Of a stretch of 38,363 nt of DNA, positions 3,736 to 13,135 are shown piece by piece. Where the stretch lies: IMG/VR virus record IMGVR_UViG_2541047946_000018, positions 1 to 38,363 of that record; one strand, given 5' to 3'. Within the stretch, counting starts at the first letter, position 1; the number at the start of each line of letters is the position of its first letter. The notes beneath the pieces were generated by a model. The model saw nothing but the letters and a program-made list of their open reading frames with translations, was not told the DNA's origin and ran no database searches. This DNA comes from a virus. Lineage: Duplodnaviria; Heunggongvirae; Uroviricota; Caudoviricetes. A program made the translations under genes and the position numbers.

Positions 3736-4062
3736 ATGACAAAACTTGGATTCGTGATGAGAGGTCCGGTAAGAAGCGGAACTCATGCAAAGCGTAGCAA
3801 GAGTCGTATTTTTACTGGTAAGGTTGTAGCACGTAAATCAGCTATTGGCTCGTTCAATAGTGAAAATGCGGCATTGCGCCATATTTTTATCAGCACAAAG
3901 CCAAGAGCATCCGCTGATGTGCATACAATGTCTATTCCTATCACAAAGAATATAAAGCGGATAAAAAAGCTCTCATCTGCAGAATCAAAAGAGATATCTT
4001 TCCGCCAGCTTAACTCATTAGAAACGCATATGAAGGAAGAGGAATTCGATGTTTTTGAGTGA
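3736..4062 (+). CDS. Small basic partner protein of YafO-like paralog B (putative antitoxin), acidic C-terminus
   Basis: ATG 3736 with GGAG RBS; stop overlaps the downstream start by 14 nt. Confidence 0.5.
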   Translation: MTKLGFVMRGPVRSGTHAKRSKSRIFTGKVVARKSAIGSFNSENAALRHIFISTKPRASADVHTMSIPITKNIKRIKKLSSAESKEISFRQLNSLETHMKEEEFDVFE

Positions 4063-4561
4063 GTATAGCGGGAAGGTTATACCTACTGGTGAGTTTAAAA
4101 CTGATGACTTTCTGATTTCGCTAAAAGATGCTTTTAAACAACACTGGCGTCATGGTCATCATCCTGATCTGGGAAAAGATACTCTTTTTGAAAGACCAGA
4201 GGAAGTATTAGGCTTCCATCTCAGAAAGGTTCATGTCAATATTGGTGAATATGCATCATATTCATACTCATGTACTGAACAGTGTTGGGATGAGTGGTCA
4301 TATGGATTGATTGATGAACAAGGAAATTACAGGCCAAAACCAACCAGTAACGCATATCTCATATATGCAGTCAATGAAATAAGAGATGCAGCCTTACTAG
4401 CTTATTGGGACCCGCCCGCACACACCAAAGCTAACGCAAAAGTTTGGATGGATTCCGTATTGAATTTCACAAAATTATTTCATGAACGAACGAATACAGC
4501 TCCACTTAGTAGAAATGTTTATCCGTGGGATTATTCGTACAAATCCAAAAAGCCTGCATAG
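4049..4561 (+). CDS. YafO-like putative toxin, paralog B
   Basis: ATG 4049 with GAAGGAAGAGGAA RBS; same motif set as paralog A. Confidence 0.55.
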   Translation: MFLSEYSGKVIPTGEFKTDDFLISLKDAFKQHWRHGHHPDLGKDTLFERPEEVLGFHLRKVHVNIGEYASYSYSCTEQCWDEWSYGLIDEQGNYRPKPTSNAYLIYAVNEIRDAALLAYWDPPAHTKANAKVWMDSVLNFTKLFHERTNTAPLSRNVYPWDYSYKSKKPA

Positions 4562-4642
4562 TAGTTTTTTATGGACGAAACAAAAGTCAGTGCTACACTC
4601 ATTGACGCCACATTGAGGTGGTTTATAGATGGAAATTTCACA

Positions 4643-4804
4643 ATGAAAAAAGCATTTGCTGCACTGTTCGTTTTGTTGTCTCTGGTAGCTTCAACTCAGG
4701 CCTTTGCCGGTCGTTGTCAGCACGACAGCGACACTGCTGCTGACGGCTCCCGCTGCGGTGGGCGTTCTGCGGATTCCCGCCCGGGTGGCGGTGGCATTCG
4801 TTAA
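4643..4804 (+). CDS. Possible small secreted peptide (53 aa), third gene of the paralog-B operon
   Basis: Canonical Sec signal MKKAFAALFVLLSLVASTQAFA; no terminator between 4561 and this ORF; terminator immediately after. Confidence 0.35.
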   Translation: MKKAFAALFVLLSLVASTQAFAGRCQHDSDTAADGSRCGGRSADSRPGGGGIR

Positions 4805-4810
4805 AAACAA

Positions 4811-4832
4811 GGCCGCGAAAGCGGCCTGTTTG
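4811..4832. terminator. Bidirectional intrinsic terminator between convergent genes
   Basis: GGCCGC-gaaa-GCGGCC hairpin flanked by AAAAACAA upstream and TGTTTG downstream. Confidence 0.65.
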
Positions 4833-4833
4833 A

Positions 4834-5685
4834 TCACTGTGCAGTTTTCGCTGATCGATTTTCAGCTCTAAATTCAAGAACCGTTTCAATATTTCTTTCC
4901 TTCAGCATATCAATAACATTTTTATTCATTTGACTATCACTGGTTAATAACTGGTAAACGTTGCTTCTCTCTTTATCAGAGTTTTCTTTAACAGCTGCTT
5001 TGCATGCCAAATGCTTATTGAAATTTTCTACATCGCTAGTACAGGAATTTACGGCTGCTGATGAAATATCAGACGCTGAAGAAACACCATCATCCAAACG
5101 TTTTATAGCATTTTCTATACATGAGTTAAGGGAATAAACGACAACTGAGCGATACCCTTCAGACGCACACCATTCTAAATTTCTTGAAGGATCGAGTGGT
5201 TTTACTTCGCTGGATTGAATTAACTTGTCAAAAACTGACTTATATTCAATCTGTTTTTTATCTATAGCCCATACTTCAGTAGCTGATTTATAATTCCCCG
5301 TATGCCTATTAACATCAAACCCATGTTTTATAAGCAAATCTGCCCATGAAAGATTTATTGATTCATTGTTATGAGGCCATTTTCCTGTCAGAACCGCCCC
5401 CATAGACCCCATATATCCGCCATATGATGGTATAGCACCATGGCTCAGTAACTTCTCAGCAACCACAGGGCAATTAATTACATAAGAGGCGTAAAGCCCA
5501 TTCCATAAAGCCCCTCTATAGTAATCGCCACGATTAGGTTCTTTTAAGTCGATAGCCTTTGATAATTGTTCACACGTTTTGCATGCATCAAAGTTATCCT
5601 TATTGCATTGCAATGAACTGGCAGCTGTAGGATTTACAGAGACTATTGAAAGCACTATGCCAAAAAACAAATTTATTTTTTTCAT
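4834..5685 (-). CDS. AT-rich moron: secreted protein with possible ankyrin-like repeats
   Basis: Signal peptide MKKINLFFGIVLSIVSVNPTAASS; ANK-like segments (LLSHGA, LLIKHGFDVN); low GC versus neighbours; starts 1 nt after the gp16-like stop. Confidence 0.6.
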   Translation of the reverse strand: MKKINLFFGIVLSIVSVNPTAASSLQCNKDNFDACKTCEQLSKAIDLKEPNRGDYYRGALWNGLYASYVINCPVVAEKLLSHGAIPSYGGYMGSMGAVLTGKWPHNNESINLSWADLLIKHGFDVNRHTGNYKSATEVWAIDKKQIEYKSVFDKLIQSSEVKPLDPSRNLEWCASEGYRSVVVYSLNSCIENAIKRLDDGVSSASDISSAAVNSCTSDVENFNKHLACKAAVKENSDKERSNVYQLLTSDSQMNKNVIDMLKERNIETVLEFRAENRSAKTAQ

Positions 5686-5686
5686 C

Positions 5687-8600
5687 CTATTTCATCTGTT
5701 CTTCAACTTTATTTAGTAATGGTGATATCGCCCACAGATTCTGAAAAGGTAGCATTTTACGGACAGCGTGGGTTTGCTGGCTGTCAAATTCTCCGTTAAG
5801 TACACCATTCGCAACCGTCGCGGCATCACCGCCAAGATCAAAGGTAGGACCAAGTAAAGCACCAATAGCATTACGACTCTGAAACCTTGATACCGGAGGC
5901 GCACCAAACATCGCGCCAAGACCAAACCTACCGCCGCTTATGTTCTCAACGGTATTCAGCGGCTCAGAGAGCCAGCCAAGCATTCCGCCCCGGTCGATCC
6001 CCTCTTTCACAAGGTTATTCCAGCTGTAGTCAATATCGCGACCGCTTAACTTCTGTTTCATCATATAGACCATTGAGCCAAGCGCAATCGTGCCAAGCGC
6101 ACCAAGATAGAATGCAGCATCGCCCTGCTGGATACCAGATACCAGCACCCTGTTATGCTGTGCGAAGATAAACGTTTTGAACTGCGTGATCATCTTCCAG
6201 CCTTCTTTACTAAAAAACAGCGGTGTATCACCTACGCCAGGCGTTACAATCACTGAGTCTACATCTTTCAGCACTGCAGACTGGAAAATCTCTCTAGCGA
6301 AACGGTCATCCCACAGATGACTATGCCCGGTTAACAGCCCGTCCATATCCTCTCCGTGCTTCCCGAATTGCTCCCCGATTCGGCGCAGAACATCTTCATT
6401 GATGCCGACCTGTGCCATCTTCCGCATTTCACTTTTGGAGAGCGTGCCACCAGCAGAAACTTGGCGAGCCGCGTCAAGTATCCTCGACTGCACTATCATC
6501 CCGGACCATGATTTAAGTGCGCTGTTCCACTGATTCATCAGCGTCCAGTTACCGAATTTCTGCGTCATCCAGTTCAGACCTCGCTCAGCGGCGCTTCTCC
6601 GGCTATAGGGGTCAGTAAGATCCGCTATAGCCTTTGTACGCGTAGACAGGACATAATCAAGCCCAACGGCCATTTCTCGCAAATCCCTGGTTGCAATTTT
6701 CACTGAGTCCATATTTTTAAGCATGCTTACCATTGGTCCGAGAGATTTTCTCAGGCCATGCTGCATCATCGGTCGCATCAGATCAGTTGCAGCGGAGACA
6801 GTCATTCCACCAAGCAAACGGAGGAAGTTAATATTCCTAGCAACTCGCCCGGCACGAACAAAGAAACTGCGTGGATCTTGAGGTGCACCGTAAGTACCAA
6901 GCAGTCGATCACGCATAGCCGTAATATCCCTAATATCAGCCTCCCGTTGCTTCTCAAGAACTGCACGTCGTTTAGGTGTTTTAGCCTCTTTTATTAGCCG
7001 GGTATATTCCTCACTAACCTGACGGATTTGCTCCCCCATATCTTTACGGCCAAACTGCGCAGTCAGCTCAATTTCTGGTGCCACCTGCCGGAGATAACTT
7101 TCCATGATGTAGTTAACATCTGATTCAAGAAAATCTTCTATACGCTCATCAGGAATAAGCAGCGTTCTGCTTTTAGTGAAACCAGCCCGACCAACGAGTC
7201 TCTCTGGGATAATATCGGCTGGTACAAGCCCGGAAGGTGCGCCTATTATTTTATTCACGATCTCGTCAGCAGCGTCCTCTGCTTCCTCTCGGGATAGAGG
7301 CTCCATCTGCTTCAGTGCTCGTTCGCGGCTTGCATTCAGCCTTGTGGTTGAATTTGCCCGTTTTTGCAGTCGGCGAAGCTCAGAACGATATTTCCGTGGA
7401 TTATCCAACAACTCCATATGACGCTGATAGACAGGAAGCTCACTCTTTGCCTGCGCTATATCATCAAGGCGTGTTTTAAGGTCAGAGCTTTCTTTCATCA
7501 TTCTTGCCTGAAGTTTTTCTGATGAAGTCTCGGCCAACTCTTTTTCTATTCTTGTAAGACGCGCCTGTGTGTCAGTCTCCTGAGATATAAGCTTATTTCG
7601 TTTATCCAGTTCTTCCATGAGTAGAATTTTTTTACCAGACCATTTCTCCGCTTCAGCGATTTCACTAGCGAGAGCATCAGCGCGCGGTGCCGATTCCTCT
7701 GCAGTTTTTAGCAATGAATTTATCCTTTCAATTCGCTGACCTGCTTTGTCAGCACCTTTGGCACTAATCCCTTGTATCCAGTTGGCAATTCGCCCTCTGA
7801 ATTCAGTGCGGTCGGAAAGTATCTTATCGAACTTATAAATGCGGGGAAGATAACTTTTCGCCGTCACGACATCGATATCCTCAGGAAGGATCCCCAGTTC
7901 CTGCATACGGGCTTTTGTGGTCTCGAAAATGGGGCGGATTCTAGCGGCTGCTTGTGAAACCTCAGGAATATCACTCTGATCACCACGGCGCATAGCCATG
8001 CCAACAGCTTCATTGAAATCAATAAAGTTCATCCTCTTCACGCCGCGGGCGCTAACAGATTTGCTGTACTGCTGGTAAGCATCACGAGTGGCTTCCATCT
8101 GCTTATAAAGCATGGCGTCGTATTGCTTAATCTTAGTCTCGACTGCCGTAAACGTAGCCAACCCCTCATCATTTTTGGCGAAGAAATAGTTATTTTCGGC
8201 AAGCTGCTGGTTAATCTGACGGGAGACAAGAGATGGTGATTGCGCCAAGCGGCCAGCAGGAGTGACACTCAACGTTTTGTTAGCAAGTCCAAGTCCAGCG
8301 AGCTGTTCCTGATCGAGTGTGGTATTGAAAACCTGAGCTGCACCAATGCTTTGAGGAGAATCCATACCTCGCAAATGATTACCTACTGAGTTAACCACTG
8401 CCTCGCGCGCGCCAGGTCCAGCAAGTAGCTGTGCACCAGCACCAAGGATCCCACCAACGAGAGCATCAACAACAACGTTCGATACGCTCTCCATCGGTGA
8501 GCGAGCTTCCTGAGTGGCCTGTAATGCGGCCTCTGAAGCAACACTGCCAGCAGCATTCGCCAGGGCAAAACGCCCGGCTGTTTCTGCAATACGACCGCCA

Positions 8601-9076
8601 CGAACGACAGCGCCGAACGGAATAAACATAGAAATCGCATTGAATGGATCTGCTAATCTCATTGCTACAGAAGAGACTGTACCAGCAAATCCCAAGCCTG
8701 AATTGTATTCCATGTCAGCTCTCTGCTGATCGATTCGATGTTTAATTGCCATTGTTTCTTCAGGCGAACCGGAGTTGATAAACGAATCTGCAAAATCTTC
8801 ATAGCCTTTAATATCTGCTGCATCGTTATCAAATGGGTTATATCCTTCAACCCTGTCAAACTGACTGAAAGGAGCACTGGCAATAAAGCTACCCAGCGTG
8901 TTATCTATACGAAATGCTGCTTGTCTAGACCTTTGAACGCGTTGATCACTGGTAAATGGGTTCACAGCAGAAAGCAAAGAAGGTGTTTCCATATAGAAAT
9001 TACTGTCATCAGGTGCTGCTATTTGCTGAATATCCTCGCCAAGCAACTCTTTAGGATCCTGTTCATATATCGGCAT
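5687..9076 (-). CDS. Internal virion/ejection protein, T7 gp16-like by position and size (1129 aa)
   Basis: Large ORF in the T7-like gene order after the gp15-like gene; coiled-coil-rich centre. Confidence 0.55.
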   Translation of the reverse strand: MPIYEQDPKELLGEDIQQIAAPDDSNFYMETPSLLSAVNPFTSDQRVQRSRQAAFRIDNTLGSFIASAPFSQFDRVEGYNPFDNDAADIKGYEDFADSFINSGSPEETMAIKHRIDQQRADMEYNSGLGFAGTVSSVAMRLADPFNAISMFIPFGAVVRGGRIAETAGRFALANAAGSVASEAALQATQEARSPMESVSNVVVDALVGGILGAGAQLLAGPGAREAVVNSVGNHLRGMDSPQSIGAAQVFNTTLDQEQLAGLGLANKTLSVTPAGRLAQSPSLVSRQINQQLAENNYFFAKNDEGLATFTAVETKIKQYDAMLYKQMEATRDAYQQYSKSVSARGVKRMNFIDFNEAVGMAMRRGDQSDIPEVSQAAARIRPIFETTKARMQELGILPEDIDVVTAKSYLPRIYKFDKILSDRTEFRGRIANWIQGISAKGADKAGQRIERINSLLKTAEESAPRADALASEIAEAEKWSGKKILLMEELDKRNKLISQETDTQARLTRIEKELAETSSEKLQARMMKESSDLKTRLDDIAQAKSELPVYQRHMELLDNPRKYRSELRRLQKRANSTTRLNASRERALKQMEPLSREEAEDAADEIVNKIIGAPSGLVPADIIPERLVGRAGFTKSRTLLIPDERIEDFLESDVNYIMESYLRQVAPEIELTAQFGRKDMGEQIRQVSEEYTRLIKEAKTPKRRAVLEKQREADIRDITAMRDRLLGTYGAPQDPRSFFVRAGRVARNINFLRLLGGMTVSAATDLMRPMMQHGLRKSLGPMVSMLKNMDSVKIATRDLREMAVGLDYVLSTRTKAIADLTDPYSRRSAAERGLNWMTQKFGNWTLMNQWNSALKSWSGMIVQSRILDAARQVSAGGTLSKSEMRKMAQVGINEDVLRRIGEQFGKHGEDMDGLLTGHSHLWDDRFAREIFQSAVLKDVDSVIVTPGVGDTPLFFSKEGWKMITQFKTFIFAQHNRVLVSGIQQGDAAFYLGALGTIALGSMVYMMKQKLSGRDIDYSWNNLVKEGIDRGGMLGWLSEPLNTVENISGGRFGLGAMFGAPPVSRFQSRNAIGALLGPTFDLGGDAATVANGVLNGEFDSQQTHAVRKMLPFQNLWAISPLLNKVEEQMK

Positions 9077-11790
9077 TATTTGCCTCCTGCGTATATATTG
9101 CTCGGAAGGTAATTGGCTGAACCATAACCGAATGGTTTGGTCAGATCTGGAGGAGTATATCCATCTTTATTGCTGAACTGCGGCAGCGGATTGCCTTCTC
9201 TCCGCACTCTAGCCTCATCAACACGCTGTTGCTGGAACTGAATGGTTTGCCTGTACATTGGAGATGTCAGCTGATCCGGCTTGAAACGAACAGGGAGACC
9301 ATTTTCTCCAATATAATTTCTCGGTTCTATCGCTCCGTTTGCGTCAGGCTGTAAAACCATAACAGCATAACTCCTATCCCTTGCCGTAAGGCCATCAGAA
9401 ACAAGTATTAAGTCCGTATCACTGCGAGGACCGCCAAAGGATTTTGATTTAAGCTCGCGTTTTTCCTGCTCCCACTGCCCCTGTATCCAGTTACCAGCAC
9501 CATTATTTACTCCGTACAATGCCTCAGGTGCATACTTCATAACCTCTGCTTTGCCATTAACCGTAGAAACTCCCCAAGTGGTTCTGATCATGGCATTGGT
9601 CATTTTCTCAGCCTGTTCTGCATCGCCACCTGTCTGTACAAAGTTAGCATCGTAAATTGTCTGGTAATCTCGCTGATAGGCCGCATTTGATTTTCCTGGA
9701 TCGGTAATATCCGGAGACCACGAACCAAAGGAAGTCAGACTGCTGGCGTTATTTTGTGCAGCAGTTGCCCTCGCCGCGACATATTTTTTGTCTCGCATGG
9801 CAGTGGAAAGCATCTGTTTCATTCGGTCATCCTGTTGGAACACCTGGCTGTAAGCCATATCAACAGCCTTATCCTCCGGCACGCCAGCGCGGGAATAATC
9901 GTAAACCTTGCCGTAAAATGCCATCGTACTTTTATCAAGTGTTGCCGCTGCCGCCGGATTATTATCGAATAACTGACCGTAGAATTTTGCCATCGGGACA
10001 ACCAGCGCAGGATCTCTTGATGTTGCTCCACTGTTAAGCATTGTTTTAACCTGAGTTGGTATCATGCCGCTTTTAGTTGTGACGGTGACCAGTGTATTGA
10101 TGCTCTGCGGATCAGATATGGAAAACGAAGGCGCGATATCCTGCGCGAAATAACGGTCTACCGCTGCCTGATTGTTTTTGTCGTTCGGGTCCAGCGGGAA
10201 GTTATTTTGCATTGAAGACACGAACCTGTTTCTTCCCTGCTGAATCTCCCACTCCCTATCCATCTCTTTAAATTTGGCCTGCATTTTCTCCCAGCGTTGC
10301 TGGTTAGCTGCAAATCCAGGAGCGTTTGGATCCTGTGGACGTAAACGTTCAAGAATGTCTTGTCGTCCTTCTGGAGTGAGGTCTTTAGCGGCACCAATGA
10401 CACCTCCATATTGTATCTGCGCCTGCATATCCTTCCACTTCATAGCGCCAATGCGCGGACCATTGGCCCGGATAAAATCGTCCTCAGAAGGTAACTTCTC
10501 AGGTTTCAATCCTTCATCAAGGGCTGAATATGCATCTTTAACTACGGTGCTAAGCTGGTCCGCATACTGCTGGCGGTACTGATTTCTCAGCTCATTAGCC
10601 TGCCTCAATGCCTGTATTTGCATTTGAGGGCTCATAGCATCAAATGCCGCATTGCCCGTATAACGCTTAGGTGAATCAAGGTTAGTTAGACCAAGGGCTG
10701 CCGAGATACCAGTTTCAAGCTGTTCGGTGCTATAAGGCATACTGCCATTTTCGTGTTTAATAATCCCAGCACATAAAGCAGCTAGTGTCTTTGGGTTAGA
10801 GATATCAAGCTGATCATTCTCCCCAACACCAAGCTCACCACACAATGCCCTAATATAAGCATCAGTATTATTACCATCACTAACCGGAGCATAGCGATTA
10901 ACAATCTCGCTAACGGTGTCATAGCCTTGACGCTGGTAAGACAACATATTTTTACCCAACGCGCGGATTCCATGCTCAGGGGTAGCAAACGTTGCAAAAC
11001 GTCCATCGCTACCGATCTGACCTTCCCACGGGTTAGATTTGCTCGCTTCAATATTACCAGGGTTATTATTACGTAAACCACGAGCATCCAATGAATTACC
11101 ATGTGATATTGCACGACTCACACCATCAAGATCCCCTGGCTCTCCATTAACCTGAAGAAACTCGTTGTATTTTTGAGCGATATTTCCTATCCATGCTTGC
11201 TGCCCCATTTGTTCCTTGAGCTGAGTTTTCTGCTGAACACGCCACTCATCAGGAAGCCCATGCGCATCAGCGTATTGATCAATAGATTCAAATCGCTGCT
11301 TGGCTAAATCGACAAATGCTTGGTTATCGCTATATAGCCCCGCAGACTGAGTGACAGCCAATGCATTTCCTGACAAATACGTTTGATCTTGGAATTGCTG
11401 AAACTGCCCAACTTCATATCGACGTGCCTGATTGTAATAAGACTGCATAGACTGCTGGAGTTGAAAGGATAATTTATTCCTTTCCTCACTTTCAGGAATT
11501 GAGCCTAATAATGCCTGAGCCCTTTCCTGCATATTTTTCATAACAGCGTCACTCTGACCAAGAGCGTTTTTACCCTGTTTAGAAATCAGCCCACTTTCAG
11601 GGTTGTTAATCTGGTCATCTGCAAATTGGTTAAATTGCAGTAACGCCTCCTGGGCCATAGCAACATTCGCTTTCTGCCTGGCTTCACCATATGCCACCGC
11701 ATACTGATCTGCGACATTCGCCAGCACCTGACCTGCTTGAGGAACATCGAAGATCTGAAAACCACCGGTTTGCACACCACGACTTTGCAC
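9076..11790 (-). CDS. Internal virion protein, T7 gp15-like by position (904 aa); GTG start 18 bp from the IS end
   Basis: ORF begins GTG 11790 with weak RBS; contains a conserved NNPGNI-containing domain of unknown function; the IS sits immediately upstream. Confidence 0.5.
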   Translation of the reverse strand: MQSRGVQTGGFQIFDVPQAGQVLANVADQYAVAYGEARQKANVAMAQEALLQFNQFADDQINNPESGLISKQGKNALGQSDAVMKNMQERAQALLGSIPESEERNKLSFQLQQSMQSYYNQARRYEVGQFQQFQDQTYLSGNALAVTQSAGLYSDNQAFVDLAKQRFESIDQYADAHGLPDEWRVQQKTQLKEQMGQQAWIGNIAQKYNEFLQVNGEPGDLDGVSRAISHGNSLDARGLRNNNPGNIEASKSNPWEGQIGSDGRFATFATPEHGIRALGKNMLSYQRQGYDTVSEIVNRYAPVSDGNNTDAYIRALCGELGVGENDQLDISNPKTLAALCAGIIKHENGSMPYSTEQLETGISAALGLTNLDSPKRYTGNAAFDAMSPQMQIQALRQANELRNQYRQQYADQLSTVVKDAYSALDEGLKPEKLPSEDDFIRANGPRIGAMKWKDMQAQIQYGGVIGAAKDLTPEGRQDILERLRPQDPNAPGFAANQQRWEKMQAKFKEMDREWEIQQGRNRFVSSMQNNFPLDPNDKNNQAAVDRYFAQDIAPSFSISDPQSINTLVTVTTKSGMIPTQVKTMLNSGATSRDPALVVPMAKFYGQLFDNNPAAAATLDKSTMAFYGKVYDYSRAGVPEDKAVDMAYSQVFQQDDRMKQMLSTAMRDKKYVAARATAAQNNASSLTSFGSWSPDITDPGKSNAAYQRDYQTIYDANFVQTGGDAEQAEKMTNAMIRTTWGVSTVNGKAEVMKYAPEALYGVNNGAGNWIQGQWEQEKRELKSKSFGGPRSDTDLILVSDGLTARDRSYAVMVLQPDANGAIEPRNYIGENGLPVRFKPDQLTSPMYRQTIQFQQQRVDEARVRREGNPLPQFSNKDGYTPPDLTKPFGYGSANYLPSNIYAGGK

Positions 11791-11861
11791 CTGGCGTCCG
11801 GATGTAGTGAACCGCCCCGGGAATCCTGGAGACTAAACTTCCTGAGAAAGAGGTAAACAGG

Positions 11862-12188
11862 ATGACTAAAAATACTCGTTTTTCCCCTGAAGTCCGTCAA
11901 CGGGCAGTCCGTATGGTTCTGGAAAGTCAGGGCGAATATGACTCACAATGGGCGACAATTTGTTCCATTGCTCCAAAGATTGGCTGTACGCCGGAGACTC
12001 TGCGTGTCTGGGTTCGCCAGCATGAGCGGGATACCGGGGGCGGTGATGGAGGGCTCACCACCGCTGAACGTCAGCGTCTGAAAGAGCTGGAGCGTGAAAA
12101 TCGTGAACTGCGCCGCAGTAACGATATCCTTCGCCAGGCTTCCGCTTATTTTGCGAAGGCGGAGTTCGACCGCCTCTGGAAAAAATGA
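11862..12188 (+). CDS. IS629 OrfA (IS3-family transposase N-terminal HTH part)
   Basis: [31 protein letters not shown]...; recognised IS629/IS3411-type OrfA; A6 slippery run at its 3' end. Confidence 0.85.
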
Positions 12189-13075
12189 TGCCACTGCTGG
12201 ATAAGCTGCGTGAGCAGTACGGGGTCGGACCGCTATGCAGCGAACTGCATATTGCCCCGTCAACGTATTACCACTGTCAGCAACAGCGACATCATCCGGA
12301 TAAACGCAGTGCCCGTGCGCAGCGCGATGACTGGCTGAAGAAAGAGATACAGCGCGTATACGATGAAAATCACAAGGTATACGGTGTGCGTAAAGTCTGG
12401 CGTCAGTTGTTACGGGAAGGTATCAGAGTGGCCAGATGCACTGTGGCACGTCTCATGGCGGTTATGGGACTTGCCGGTGTTCTCCGGGGTAAAAAGGTCC
12501 GTACGACCATCAGCCGGAAAGCCGTTGCCGCAGGCGACCGCGTAAACCGTCAGTTCGTGGCAGAACGACCTGACCAGCTGTGGGTGGCTGATTTTACTTA
12601 CGTCAGCACATGGCAGGGCTTCGTCTATGTGGCGTTCATCATTGATGTGTTTGCCGGATACATTGTGGGGTGGCGGGTCTCATCGTCCATGGAGACGACA
12701 TTCGTGCTGGATGCACTGGAGCAGGCGTTATGGGCCCGTCGACCGTCCGGCACGGTCCATCACAGTGATAAAGGTTCTCAGTATGTATCGCTGGCCTACA
12801 CACAGCGGCTTAAGGAAGCCGGATTACTGGCATCAACAGGAAGTACAGGCGACTCGTATGACAACGCGATGGCGGAGAGCATCAATGGTCTTTACAAAGC
12901 GGAGGTAATACACCGTAAGAGCTGGAAAAACCGTGCAGAAGTGGAACTGGCCACACTCACGTGGGTGGACTGGTATAACAATCGACGATTGCTGGAAAGG
13001 CTGGGCCATACTCCTCCGGCAGAAGCAGAAAAAGCTTATTATGCTTCCATCGGAAACGATGATCTGGCAGCCTGA
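12185..13075 (+). CDS. IS629 OrfB (transposase catalytic DDE domain)
   Basis: Overlaps orfA in the -1 frame; rve-type integrase core by family knowledge. Confidence 0.85.
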
Positions 13076-13135
13076 GTTCACAGATAAAATACTCTCCAGG
13101 AAACCCGGGGCGGTTCATAGTAGGAACAACAGGCA

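Follow-up and report, generated by a model that had tools for sequence, protein, structure and literature searches.

A predicted exported two-domain accessory protein encoded behind the ejection-protein genes of an epsilon15/phiV10-like prophage

We analysed a gene for a protein of 283 amino acids (aa) on the minus strand of IMG/VR virus record IMGVR_UViG_2541047946_000018, a stretch of 38,363 nucleotides (nt) that is analysed here at its full length and is called the window below. The window is an epsilon15/phiV10-like (Uetakevirus-type) prophage, and the gene directly follows that for a large ejection protein. Its product is very probably an exported accessory protein and not a virion protein, and it is more likely a factor in phage conflict or host interaction than a part of the virus particle. 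It combines an N-terminal domain, probably a diverged form of the ankyrin fold, with a C-terminal half that represents an uncatalogued domain family with a consistent link to mobile elements.

Results

The gene and its junction with the ejection-protein gene

The gene, the parts of its product and the elements directly adjoining it are located as follows.

4834..5685, minus strand: coding sequence (CDS) of the 283-aa protein (list of open reading frames (ORFs); PHROG 6118; RefSeq; ratio of nonsynonymous to synonymous substitution rates (dN/dS))
5617..5685, minus strand: predicted Sec-type signal peptide, residues 1-23, MKKINLFFGIVLSIVSVNPTAAS (hydrophobicity, conservation and predicted local distance difference test (pLDDT))
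5206..5616, minus strand: N-terminal domain, residues 24-160, a Cys-rich cap (C27, C35, C38, C72) and about three repeats, probably diverged ankyrin-like
4837..5205, minus strand: C-terminal domain, residues 161-283, a helical bundle with C173, C189, C215 and C228 and the motif LDDG[VI]S.ASDI ... VLE.R
4810..4827, no strand assigned: GC-rich hairpin terminator 3' of the gene (terminator scan: 7-bp stem with six GC pairs, T-run)
5687..9076, minus strand: upstream gene for a 1129-aa T7-gp16-like internal virion (ejection) protein (PHROG 342; junction)

The 283-aa ORF is a real gene. Its product matches PHROG 6118 over the full length (residues 1-283 on profile positions 1-283 of 283, E = 1.1e-200), homologues exist in five genera, and a dN/dS of 0.17 between the E. 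coli and Klebsiella versions indicates purifying selection. Membership in PHROG 6118 names a family and explains no function: the family is a phage family without functional annotation, the RefSeq entry (WP_000723561.1) is a 'hypothetical protein', and a literature search for this accession retrieved no paper mentioning it.

The ATG start lies at position 5685 and the TAG stop of the upstream 1129-aa ORF at 5687-5689, so that the single base 5686 separates the two genes (...GAAATAG-G-ATGAAAAAA). An earlier reading of the window, made from its letters alone (the sequence-only reading), had placed the start 1 nt after the stop of a gp16-like gene and had described a GC content below that of the flanking virion genes; both statements hold. 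The gene has a GC content of 0.369 (0.285 at third codon positions), compared with 0.481 (0.436) for the upstream gene and 0.485 for the window. A GC profile of the whole window shows that only 0.35% of all 852-bp segments are equally AT-rich, and the gene is the most AT-rich stretch with the exception of one region near 22.6 kb. The hairpin terminator begins six bases beyond the stop codon, is common to the gene and the convergent plus-strand gene, and is annotated as 'terminator' in the record of phage phiV10.

The 1129-aa upstream protein matches PHROG 342, 'internal virion protein with endolysin domain', with E = 2e-233, and its gene is preceded by a gene of the Pfam T7_gp14 family and by a gene for a 915-aa protein. 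The term 'gp16-like', in the T7 sense, is therefore fair, and on the strength of the PHROG 342 match the three upstream genes represent a T7-type gp14/15/16 ejection set.

Leader, cysteines and predicted export

The leader consists of MKK, a 14-residue hydrophobic core (INLFFGIVLSIVSV) and NPTAAS, with small residues at -3/-1, and signal peptidase I (SPase I) is predicted to cleave after residue 22, 23 or 24. It is the sole hydrophobic segment of the protein. We judged the leader by sequence rules (basic n-region, h-region of 10-15 residues, small residues at -3/-1), by conservation and by the invariant cysteines. The n/h/c layout is kept in all 14 aligned homologues (e.g., SALA ahead of KC in Morganella), whose leaders always end 1-4 residues ahead of the first invariant Cys, and pLDDT is below 50 over residues 1-23. 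Eight cysteines (C27, C35, C38, C72, C173, C189, C215 and C228) are invariant among homologues with 39-100% identity, a pattern expected of an oxidised periplasmic protein. On these grounds the Sec signal peptide assumed in the sequence-only reading is confirmed as a prediction, and the protein is expected to be exported to the periplasm and to form disulfides there. We also considered a lipoprotein signal (SPase II) and rejected it: there is no [LVI][ASTVI][GAS]C lipobox, and the first Cys is preceded by S-L-Q, or by A-K or G-Q in the homologues.

Two-domain architecture

A profile search of 1.84 billion representative proteins splits the protein into two modules. The N-terminal module also occurs free-standing, in proteins of about 160-170 aa that have leaders of their own and the same four cysteines. 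When a profile of this free-standing family (A2) was searched against the PDB, all 19 of the 19 matches were ankyrin proteins (best E = 2e-4). In the search of representative proteins, profile A1 also matches two multi-ANK proteins, P0061 (E = 5.5e-9, six stretches) and P0057, both of which are ANK proteins by Pfam.

Searches with the single sequence are far less informative. Pfam returned no family at E <= 1, leaving the protein below every ANK threshold, and likewise recognised no family in the free-standing relatives P0023 and P0025. NCBIfam gave a chance match to NusA only, the PDB nothing meaningful (two DARPin matches at E of about 1), and a Foldseek search of the full model against the viral structures in BFVD nothing at E <= 0.001. 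Since the profiles match ANK proteins, Pfam misses its threshold and the model is moderate, we describe residues ~24-160 as a diverged ankyrin-like domain, an assignment that is probably correct. The domain is related at the profile level to bona fide ankyrin-repeat proteins (Pfam Ank clan) and differs from them by its approximately three irregular repeats, the added Cys-rich cap and the fusion to an unrelated domain. The ankyrin-like repeats proposed in the sequence-only reading are thus retained, as a diverged form supported by profiles and, tentatively, by fold, for the N-terminal domain; they do not extend to the C-terminal 120 residues, which are unrelated, and Pfam recognises nothing. 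That reading overlooked the two-domain build, of which the non-ankyrin C-terminal domain is the more telling part.

In other bacteria, the N-terminal module is also fused to different C-terminal parts (P0054, P0062, P0065, P0066; P0032, P0043, P0046, P0049). One of these partners is a conserved region of ~250 aa that ends in TPR/YfiO-like repeats, and there are several other unrelated extensions. This suggests that the N-terminal module is a reusable periplasmic binding module.

The C-terminal module, modelled alone, is a helical bundle with a pLDDT of 93. It has no Pfam family and no convincing fold relative, and its alignment profile has zero matches in the PDB even at E <= 10. Its signature is C-x9-DDx[IV]SxASD[IV]-x8-C, followed by VL..R near the C-terminus; in its other form the motif reads C..I..LDDG[IV]S.ASDIA..V..C ... 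VL..R. A lysozyme inhibitor of the DUF1311/LprI type was considered and discarded, as there is no Pfam match and the pattern of cysteines and motif differs from that of DUF1311/LprI proteins.

Distribution, genomic slot and divergence

The virion module of the window is 97-99% identical to that of Escherichia phage EC.W1-9, which encodes an identical 283-aa protein and is the only one of 50,697 phage records to encode it. Thirteen related phage records have the neighbouring 53-aa gene and/or the terminator and lack the gene. In Klebsiella phage ST512-KPC3phi13.3 the slot is taken by an unrelated protein of 204 aa that lacks a leader, TL-2011b carries other genes at this position, and the gene is also missing from phiV10. 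The whole gene is present in 106 of 5,426 complete E. coli genomes (489 of the 5,426 match some flanking sequence), i.e. in ~2%, including strains of extraintestinal pathogenic (ExPEC) and avian pathogenic (APEC) E. coli of the sequence type 95 (ST95) kind. The carriers are host-associated Enterobacterales, human and poultry E. coli isolates included. Epsilon15-like prophages are treated in PMC3573123 only with regard to neaT, which has no bearing here.

Homologues are found in Escherichia, Klebsiella (84-89% identity), Serratia (~60%) and Morganella/Providencia (~40%). Wherever the gene is present in these five genera (E. coli, Klebsiella, Serratia, Morganella, Providencia), it directly follows the gene for the ~1130-aa ejection protein, with a stop-start gap of 1 nt in E. 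coli and Klebsiella and of about 11-31 nt in Serratia and Morganella. Its identity tracks that of the neighbour but drops faster (43% and 58%, versus 56% and 79% for the upstream gene). Its AT-richness recurs in all lineages, with a GC content of 0.35-0.40 versus 0.46-0.535 for its neighbours, and of 0.32 versus 0.41 in one AT-rich host. The conserved slot, the AT-richness and a divergence that tracks the neighbour across genera show that the gene is long-standing cargo of one sub-lineage. A recent insertion, which the sequence-only reading had implied by calling the gene 'wedged', is ruled out by a slot that is kept across genera down to ~40% identity. The gene is optional cargo in a variable slot at the end of the virion operon.

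For the E. coli versus the Klebsiella versions (comparison with L041/L043/L044), synonymous divergence (dS) is 0.39-0.41 for the gene and 1.06-1.34, about three times higher, for the upstream gene. The lower value could reflect a separate horizontal exchange of the cargo gene or a strong constraint on codon composition.

Contexts of the C-terminal module

Free-standing relatives of the C-terminal module lie on a mobile element wherever the context can be identified (L010, L057, L058, L060 and L069 are too short or unclassifiable, and L070 has only an ISL3 transposase gene nearby). On two unrelated phage contigs, L009 and L012, the gene is directly downstream of, and co-oriented with, a gene for a CI-like repressor with helix-turn-helix (HTH) and Peptidase_S24 domains. 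The two genes overlap by 4 nt in L009; in L012 they are 63 nt apart and are flanked on the other side by a divergent Cro-like gene. In L071, the gene is located 4 nt downstream of an Arc-like repressor gene, opposite a Rha antirepressor gene and convergent with a podophage nozzle gene. Genes linked in this way to a prophage repressor are active in the lysogen and usually protect it, lambda rexAB being the textbook case.

Several further genes for the module are situated between a P4-type integrase and AlpA/Prim-Pol on islands beside mnmE (Thauera, Accumulibacter, Sulfuricellaceae), and in L050/L062 the gene lies beside small-terminase genes on an integrase-bearing element. A metagenome scan for relatives of the domain mostly returned the same integrase-AlpA island family and added few independent contexts.

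The mnmE-side island (L054 3186-4786, L055, L056, L061, L066 and L068) is conserved in Betaproteobacteria from activated sludge. Its gene order is P4-type integrase, a 113-aa ORF, a 66-aa ORF, the secreted protein with the C-terminal domain, a 176-241-aa ORF, AlpA and Prim-Pol/DUF927. None of the small ORFs has a Pfam match, and the island resembles a satellite-like element whose cargo set is uncharacterised.

Proposed function

Taken as a protein that is exported by prediction, cysteine-rich, optional and foreign in composition, the product is strongly argued against as a virion component. Its absence from most relatives and its replacement in ST512-KPC3phi13.3 lend the same indirect support to the claim of the sequence-only reading that it is not part of the virion. 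We propose that it is a non-structural, 'moron'-type accessory protein of epsilon15/phiV10-like temperate podophages. It would be synthesised with a cleavable Sec leader, reach the periplasm and be stabilised there by up to four disulfides. The mature form of ~29 kDa would consist of two modules: an ankyrin-like scaffold for protein binding, from a family that otherwise appears to comprise small periplasmic proteins of Proteobacteria, and a helical domain that elsewhere seems to occur only in small secreted proteins on temperate phages and satellite-like islands. Two binding-type modules without a catalytic signature suggest that the protein acts by binding a periplasmic partner.

Such a partner may be something that an incoming phage needs while crossing the periplasm. 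Our best guess is the conduit of gp14/gp15/gp16-type ejection proteins of related phages, in which case the protein would be a soluble periplasmic counterpart of P22 SieA. The sieA-like slot, the precedent of HXS (for both, see the last section) and the repressor-linked contexts of the C-terminal module make a periplasmic superinfection-exclusion or anti-phage factor the best-supported reading. We infer this function, its target and the binding role, and we hold the exclusion reading as a tentative possibility whose chances we put somewhat below even. As between exclusion and host interaction, the context evidence leans toward exclusion or phage conflict. A wider proposal, which we regard as doubtful, is that the C-terminal domain defines a previously unrecognised family of periplasmic anti-phage/exclusion modules, whose fusion to the ankyrin-like domain intercepts the T7-type gp14/15/16 conduit. 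Temperate phages would carry modules of this kind after cI or arc and satellite-like islands after the integrase, and epsilon15-like podophages would have the fused form.

Several observations weigh against periplasmic exclusion and the structural picture behind it. No defence family in PADLOC-DB 2.0 matches the protein or its three plus-strand neighbours. The main weakness concerns expression: the gene appears to be the final cistron of the late operon of virion genes, and a crude consensus scan from 4400 to 9200 found no sigma-70-like promoter except for a single weak site located 1.9 kb upstream. This leaves doubt about expression in the lysogen, on which classical exclusion depends, and late expression would fit other roles better. 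The N-terminal domain is modelled with only moderate confidence by AlphaFold2 (AF2; pLDDT 53-84). Its free-standing ankyrin-like relatives occupy ordinary chromosomal loci of Burkholderiaceae that are uninformative on phages: one follows a cluster with a pyridoxal phosphate (PLP) decarboxylase and an esterase, another overlaps a cytochrome c gene, and these loci fit a general periplasmic protein family. The integrase-island cases come mostly from one element family and are thus not independent observations. Finally, the repressor-linked contexts comprise three independent cases of distant relatives that share one domain only, at 23-30% identity.

Alternative explanations

The position of the gene would suit a late lytic-cycle helper, made together with the virion proteins, exported late and acting on the envelope of the producing cell. 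Its task might be to tune lysis, to shield the murein or periplasm while assembly is still under way, or to mask a receptor against the loss of progeny on debris. The gene is tightly joined to the last virion gene through a junction that is kept from E. coli to Klebsiella, it ends at the operon terminator without a promoter-like site nearby, and it is co-inherited with the structural module, as the identities of 43/58% and 56/79% given above indicate. However, it is dispensable, being absent from most related phages and replaced by a different gene in one of them; the lysis cassette is located elsewhere in the genome; and the C-terminal domain has relatives coupled to repressor genes, which points to lysogenic rather than late expression. 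We consider the helper fairly unlikely in the form described, and a purely late function stays a serious rival to exclusion.

The pairing of an ankyrin-like domain with a signal peptide recalls ANKp (bioRxiv 10.1101/608950), and the carriers are the host-associated bacteria listed above. The protein could accordingly be an animal-host factor that is freed by lysis or in vesicles and dampens phagocytosis or inflammation. A Sec leader, however, leads only as far as the periplasm, no dedicated secretion signal or system is found nearby, and the Pfam ANK signatures by which ANKp was defined are absent. Relatives of both domains are, moreover, common in environmental Betaproteobacteria and on their mobile elements (activated sludge, sulfur oxidisers), for which an animal target is unlikely. 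An animal-host factor is thus quite unlikely.

Ankyrin-type immunity proteins are known in polymorphic toxin systems, and a predicted periplasmic, disulfide-bonded repeat protein built for protein binding and carried as cargo on mobile elements could be an orphan immunity protein, i.e. a binder that neutralises the toxin of a competitor (an effector of a type VI secretion system (T6SS), a colicin-type toxin or a muralytic enzyme). No toxin gene adjoins any homologue in the contexts inspected, and we regard this explanation, which has little support, as very unlikely. A component of the virion or ejectosome whose translation is coupled to that of gp16 and which is packaged together with it would account for the 1-nt stop-start spacing, which suggests coupled translation with the internal virion protein, and for the conserved position after the gp16-like gene, but it too has little support and can practically be dismissed: the Sec leader and eight conserved cysteines imply export and periplasmic oxidation, which cannot be reconciled with packaging inside the cytoplasm; phiV10, TL-2011b and most relatives lack the gene; and its composition is foreign to the structural module.

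Neighbouring genes and state of the prophage

The order of genes in the window is truncated tailspike (135-1076), Ant/Bro-N, a YafO-like pair, the 53-aa gene, the gene for the 283-aa protein and the gp16-like gene. Seen from the latter, an AT-rich accessory cluster on the plus strand lies past the terminator and consists of the 53-aa gene, genes for a 108-aa protein and a YafO-like toxin, and a Bro-N/Ant antirepressor gene. The nearest of these is the following.

4643..4804, plus strand: convergent neighbour, a 53-aa small secreted or membrane-associated protein (PHROG 14503; CDS in EC.W1-9 and in E. coli E-1246)

A longer ORF of the 53-aa gene starts at 4571, and the protein has a leader of its own (MKKAFAALFVLLSLVASTQAFA followed by GRCQHDSD...). 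PHROG 14503 is a 'membrane associated protein' of the moron category and is widespread among phiV10/TL-2011b-type phages. The 53-aa protein also has a weak NCBIfam match to the His-Xaa-Ser repeat protein HxsA3 (E = 0.02), which is far below the cut-off and serves as a lead only; it holds just one HxS triplet, and no radical S-adenosylmethionine (rSAM) genes were seen.

The AT-rich gene pair at 3736-4561 on the plus strand (GC 0.40 and 0.39) differs from EC.W1-9. The stop codon of the 108-aa gene overlaps the start of the gene for the 170-aa YafO-like protein, which matches Pfam YafO below threshold (E = 7e-4) and is named YafO family toxin in RefSeq. The pair is likely a toxin-antitoxin module of the same accessory cluster.

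Compared with EC.W1-9, the 915-aa gp15-like gene is split by a 1310-bp insertion sequence (IS) of the IS3 family at 11808-13118, which contains ORFs of 108 aa and 296 aa. Positions 1-183 of the window are an inverted copy of one end of this IS and abut the truncated tailspike gene (313-aa ORF, 135-1076). Several IS copies had been suggested by multiple 296-aa ORFs; BLAST of the window against itself reduced them to one full copy and one end fragment. The IS in the gp15-like gene and the truncated tailspike indicate that this copy of the prophage is very probably defective, with the gene for the 283-aa protein intact.

The chromosome of E. coli E-1246 is identical to the window over 4700-5800. 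There (L059 1-7500), the accessory side of the prophage borders on an IS26/Tn3 resistance mosaic (aac(3)-IIe, pemIK), which stands in place of the antirepressor and tailspike side.

Discussion

Implications

Little is understood of the way in which the DNA of an incoming phage is halted in the periplasm, and SieA of P22, in the inner membrane, and HXS are the main examples considered here. If the wider proposal is correct, no soluble periplasmic protein that excludes phages by targeting an ejectosome would have been known before this one. A soluble disulfide-bonded binder encoded beside the ejectosome genes would offer an easy handle on the periplasmic step of DNA entry. The protein is small and clonable, the viable phage EC.W1-9 carries an identical one, and escape mutants would reveal its target. 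The C-terminal domain, which recurs at repressor- and integrase-linked cargo sites in distant Proteobacteria, is a candidate addition to catalogues of defence and exclusion systems. Since ~2% of complete E. coli genomes carry the gene, any effect on phage susceptibility or host interaction would have practical reach. If it is instead a dispensable late gene without a phenotype, it is an ordinary moron. PHROG 6118 is already catalogued, if unannotated, and secreted prophage accessory proteins are known as such; the architecture and a possible soluble mode of periplasmic exclusion would be new.

Comparison with known systems

The closest parallel in position is sieA of P22, which lies between genes 16 and 9 and whose product acts on the conduit proteins gp16/gp20 (PMC10883804). 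Like sieA, the gene studied here is an accessory prophage gene of a temperate podophage, situated beside the antirepressor region and between the last ejection-protein gene, here gp16-like, and the tailspike gene, here truncated. Like it, too, the gene is optional, sieA being present in 22 of 66 P22-like phages (PMC10883804). The products are of different types: SieA passes through the inner membrane several times, is expressed from a promoter of its own and contains the motif FxRYPxEAxxFNK (PMC10883804), whereas the 283-aa protein has a single hydrophobic segment that is predicted to be cleaved. Neither the protein nor any of the six frames of the window contains the motif, and no similarity in sequence or fold between the two proteins was found. 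The two are analogous in position and possibly in role, and they are not homologues.

In ANKp, a secreted phage ankyrin of the 'Ankyphages' of sponge symbionts, ankyrin repeats are likewise combined with a signal peptide (bioRxiv 10.1101/608950), and the difference lies in the Pfam ANK signatures discussed above.

Small exported proteins that stop phage entry provide the nearest parallels in the proposed action. Spackle (Sp) of T4 is a small exported periplasmic protein of this kind. The 283-aa protein matches neither Spackle nor HxsA in sequence or fold, it has no peptidoglycan-binding domain, and no rSAM maturation genes accompany it. HxsA, the effector of HXS, acts in the periplasm and blocks the entry of phage DNA, and escape mutations map to T7 gp15/gp16 (PMC13128918). 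Like HxsA, the 283-aa protein is small and, by prediction, exported, and an action on incoming phage is proposed for it by analogy; the genes in which T7 escapes HXS are homologues of those located next to it.

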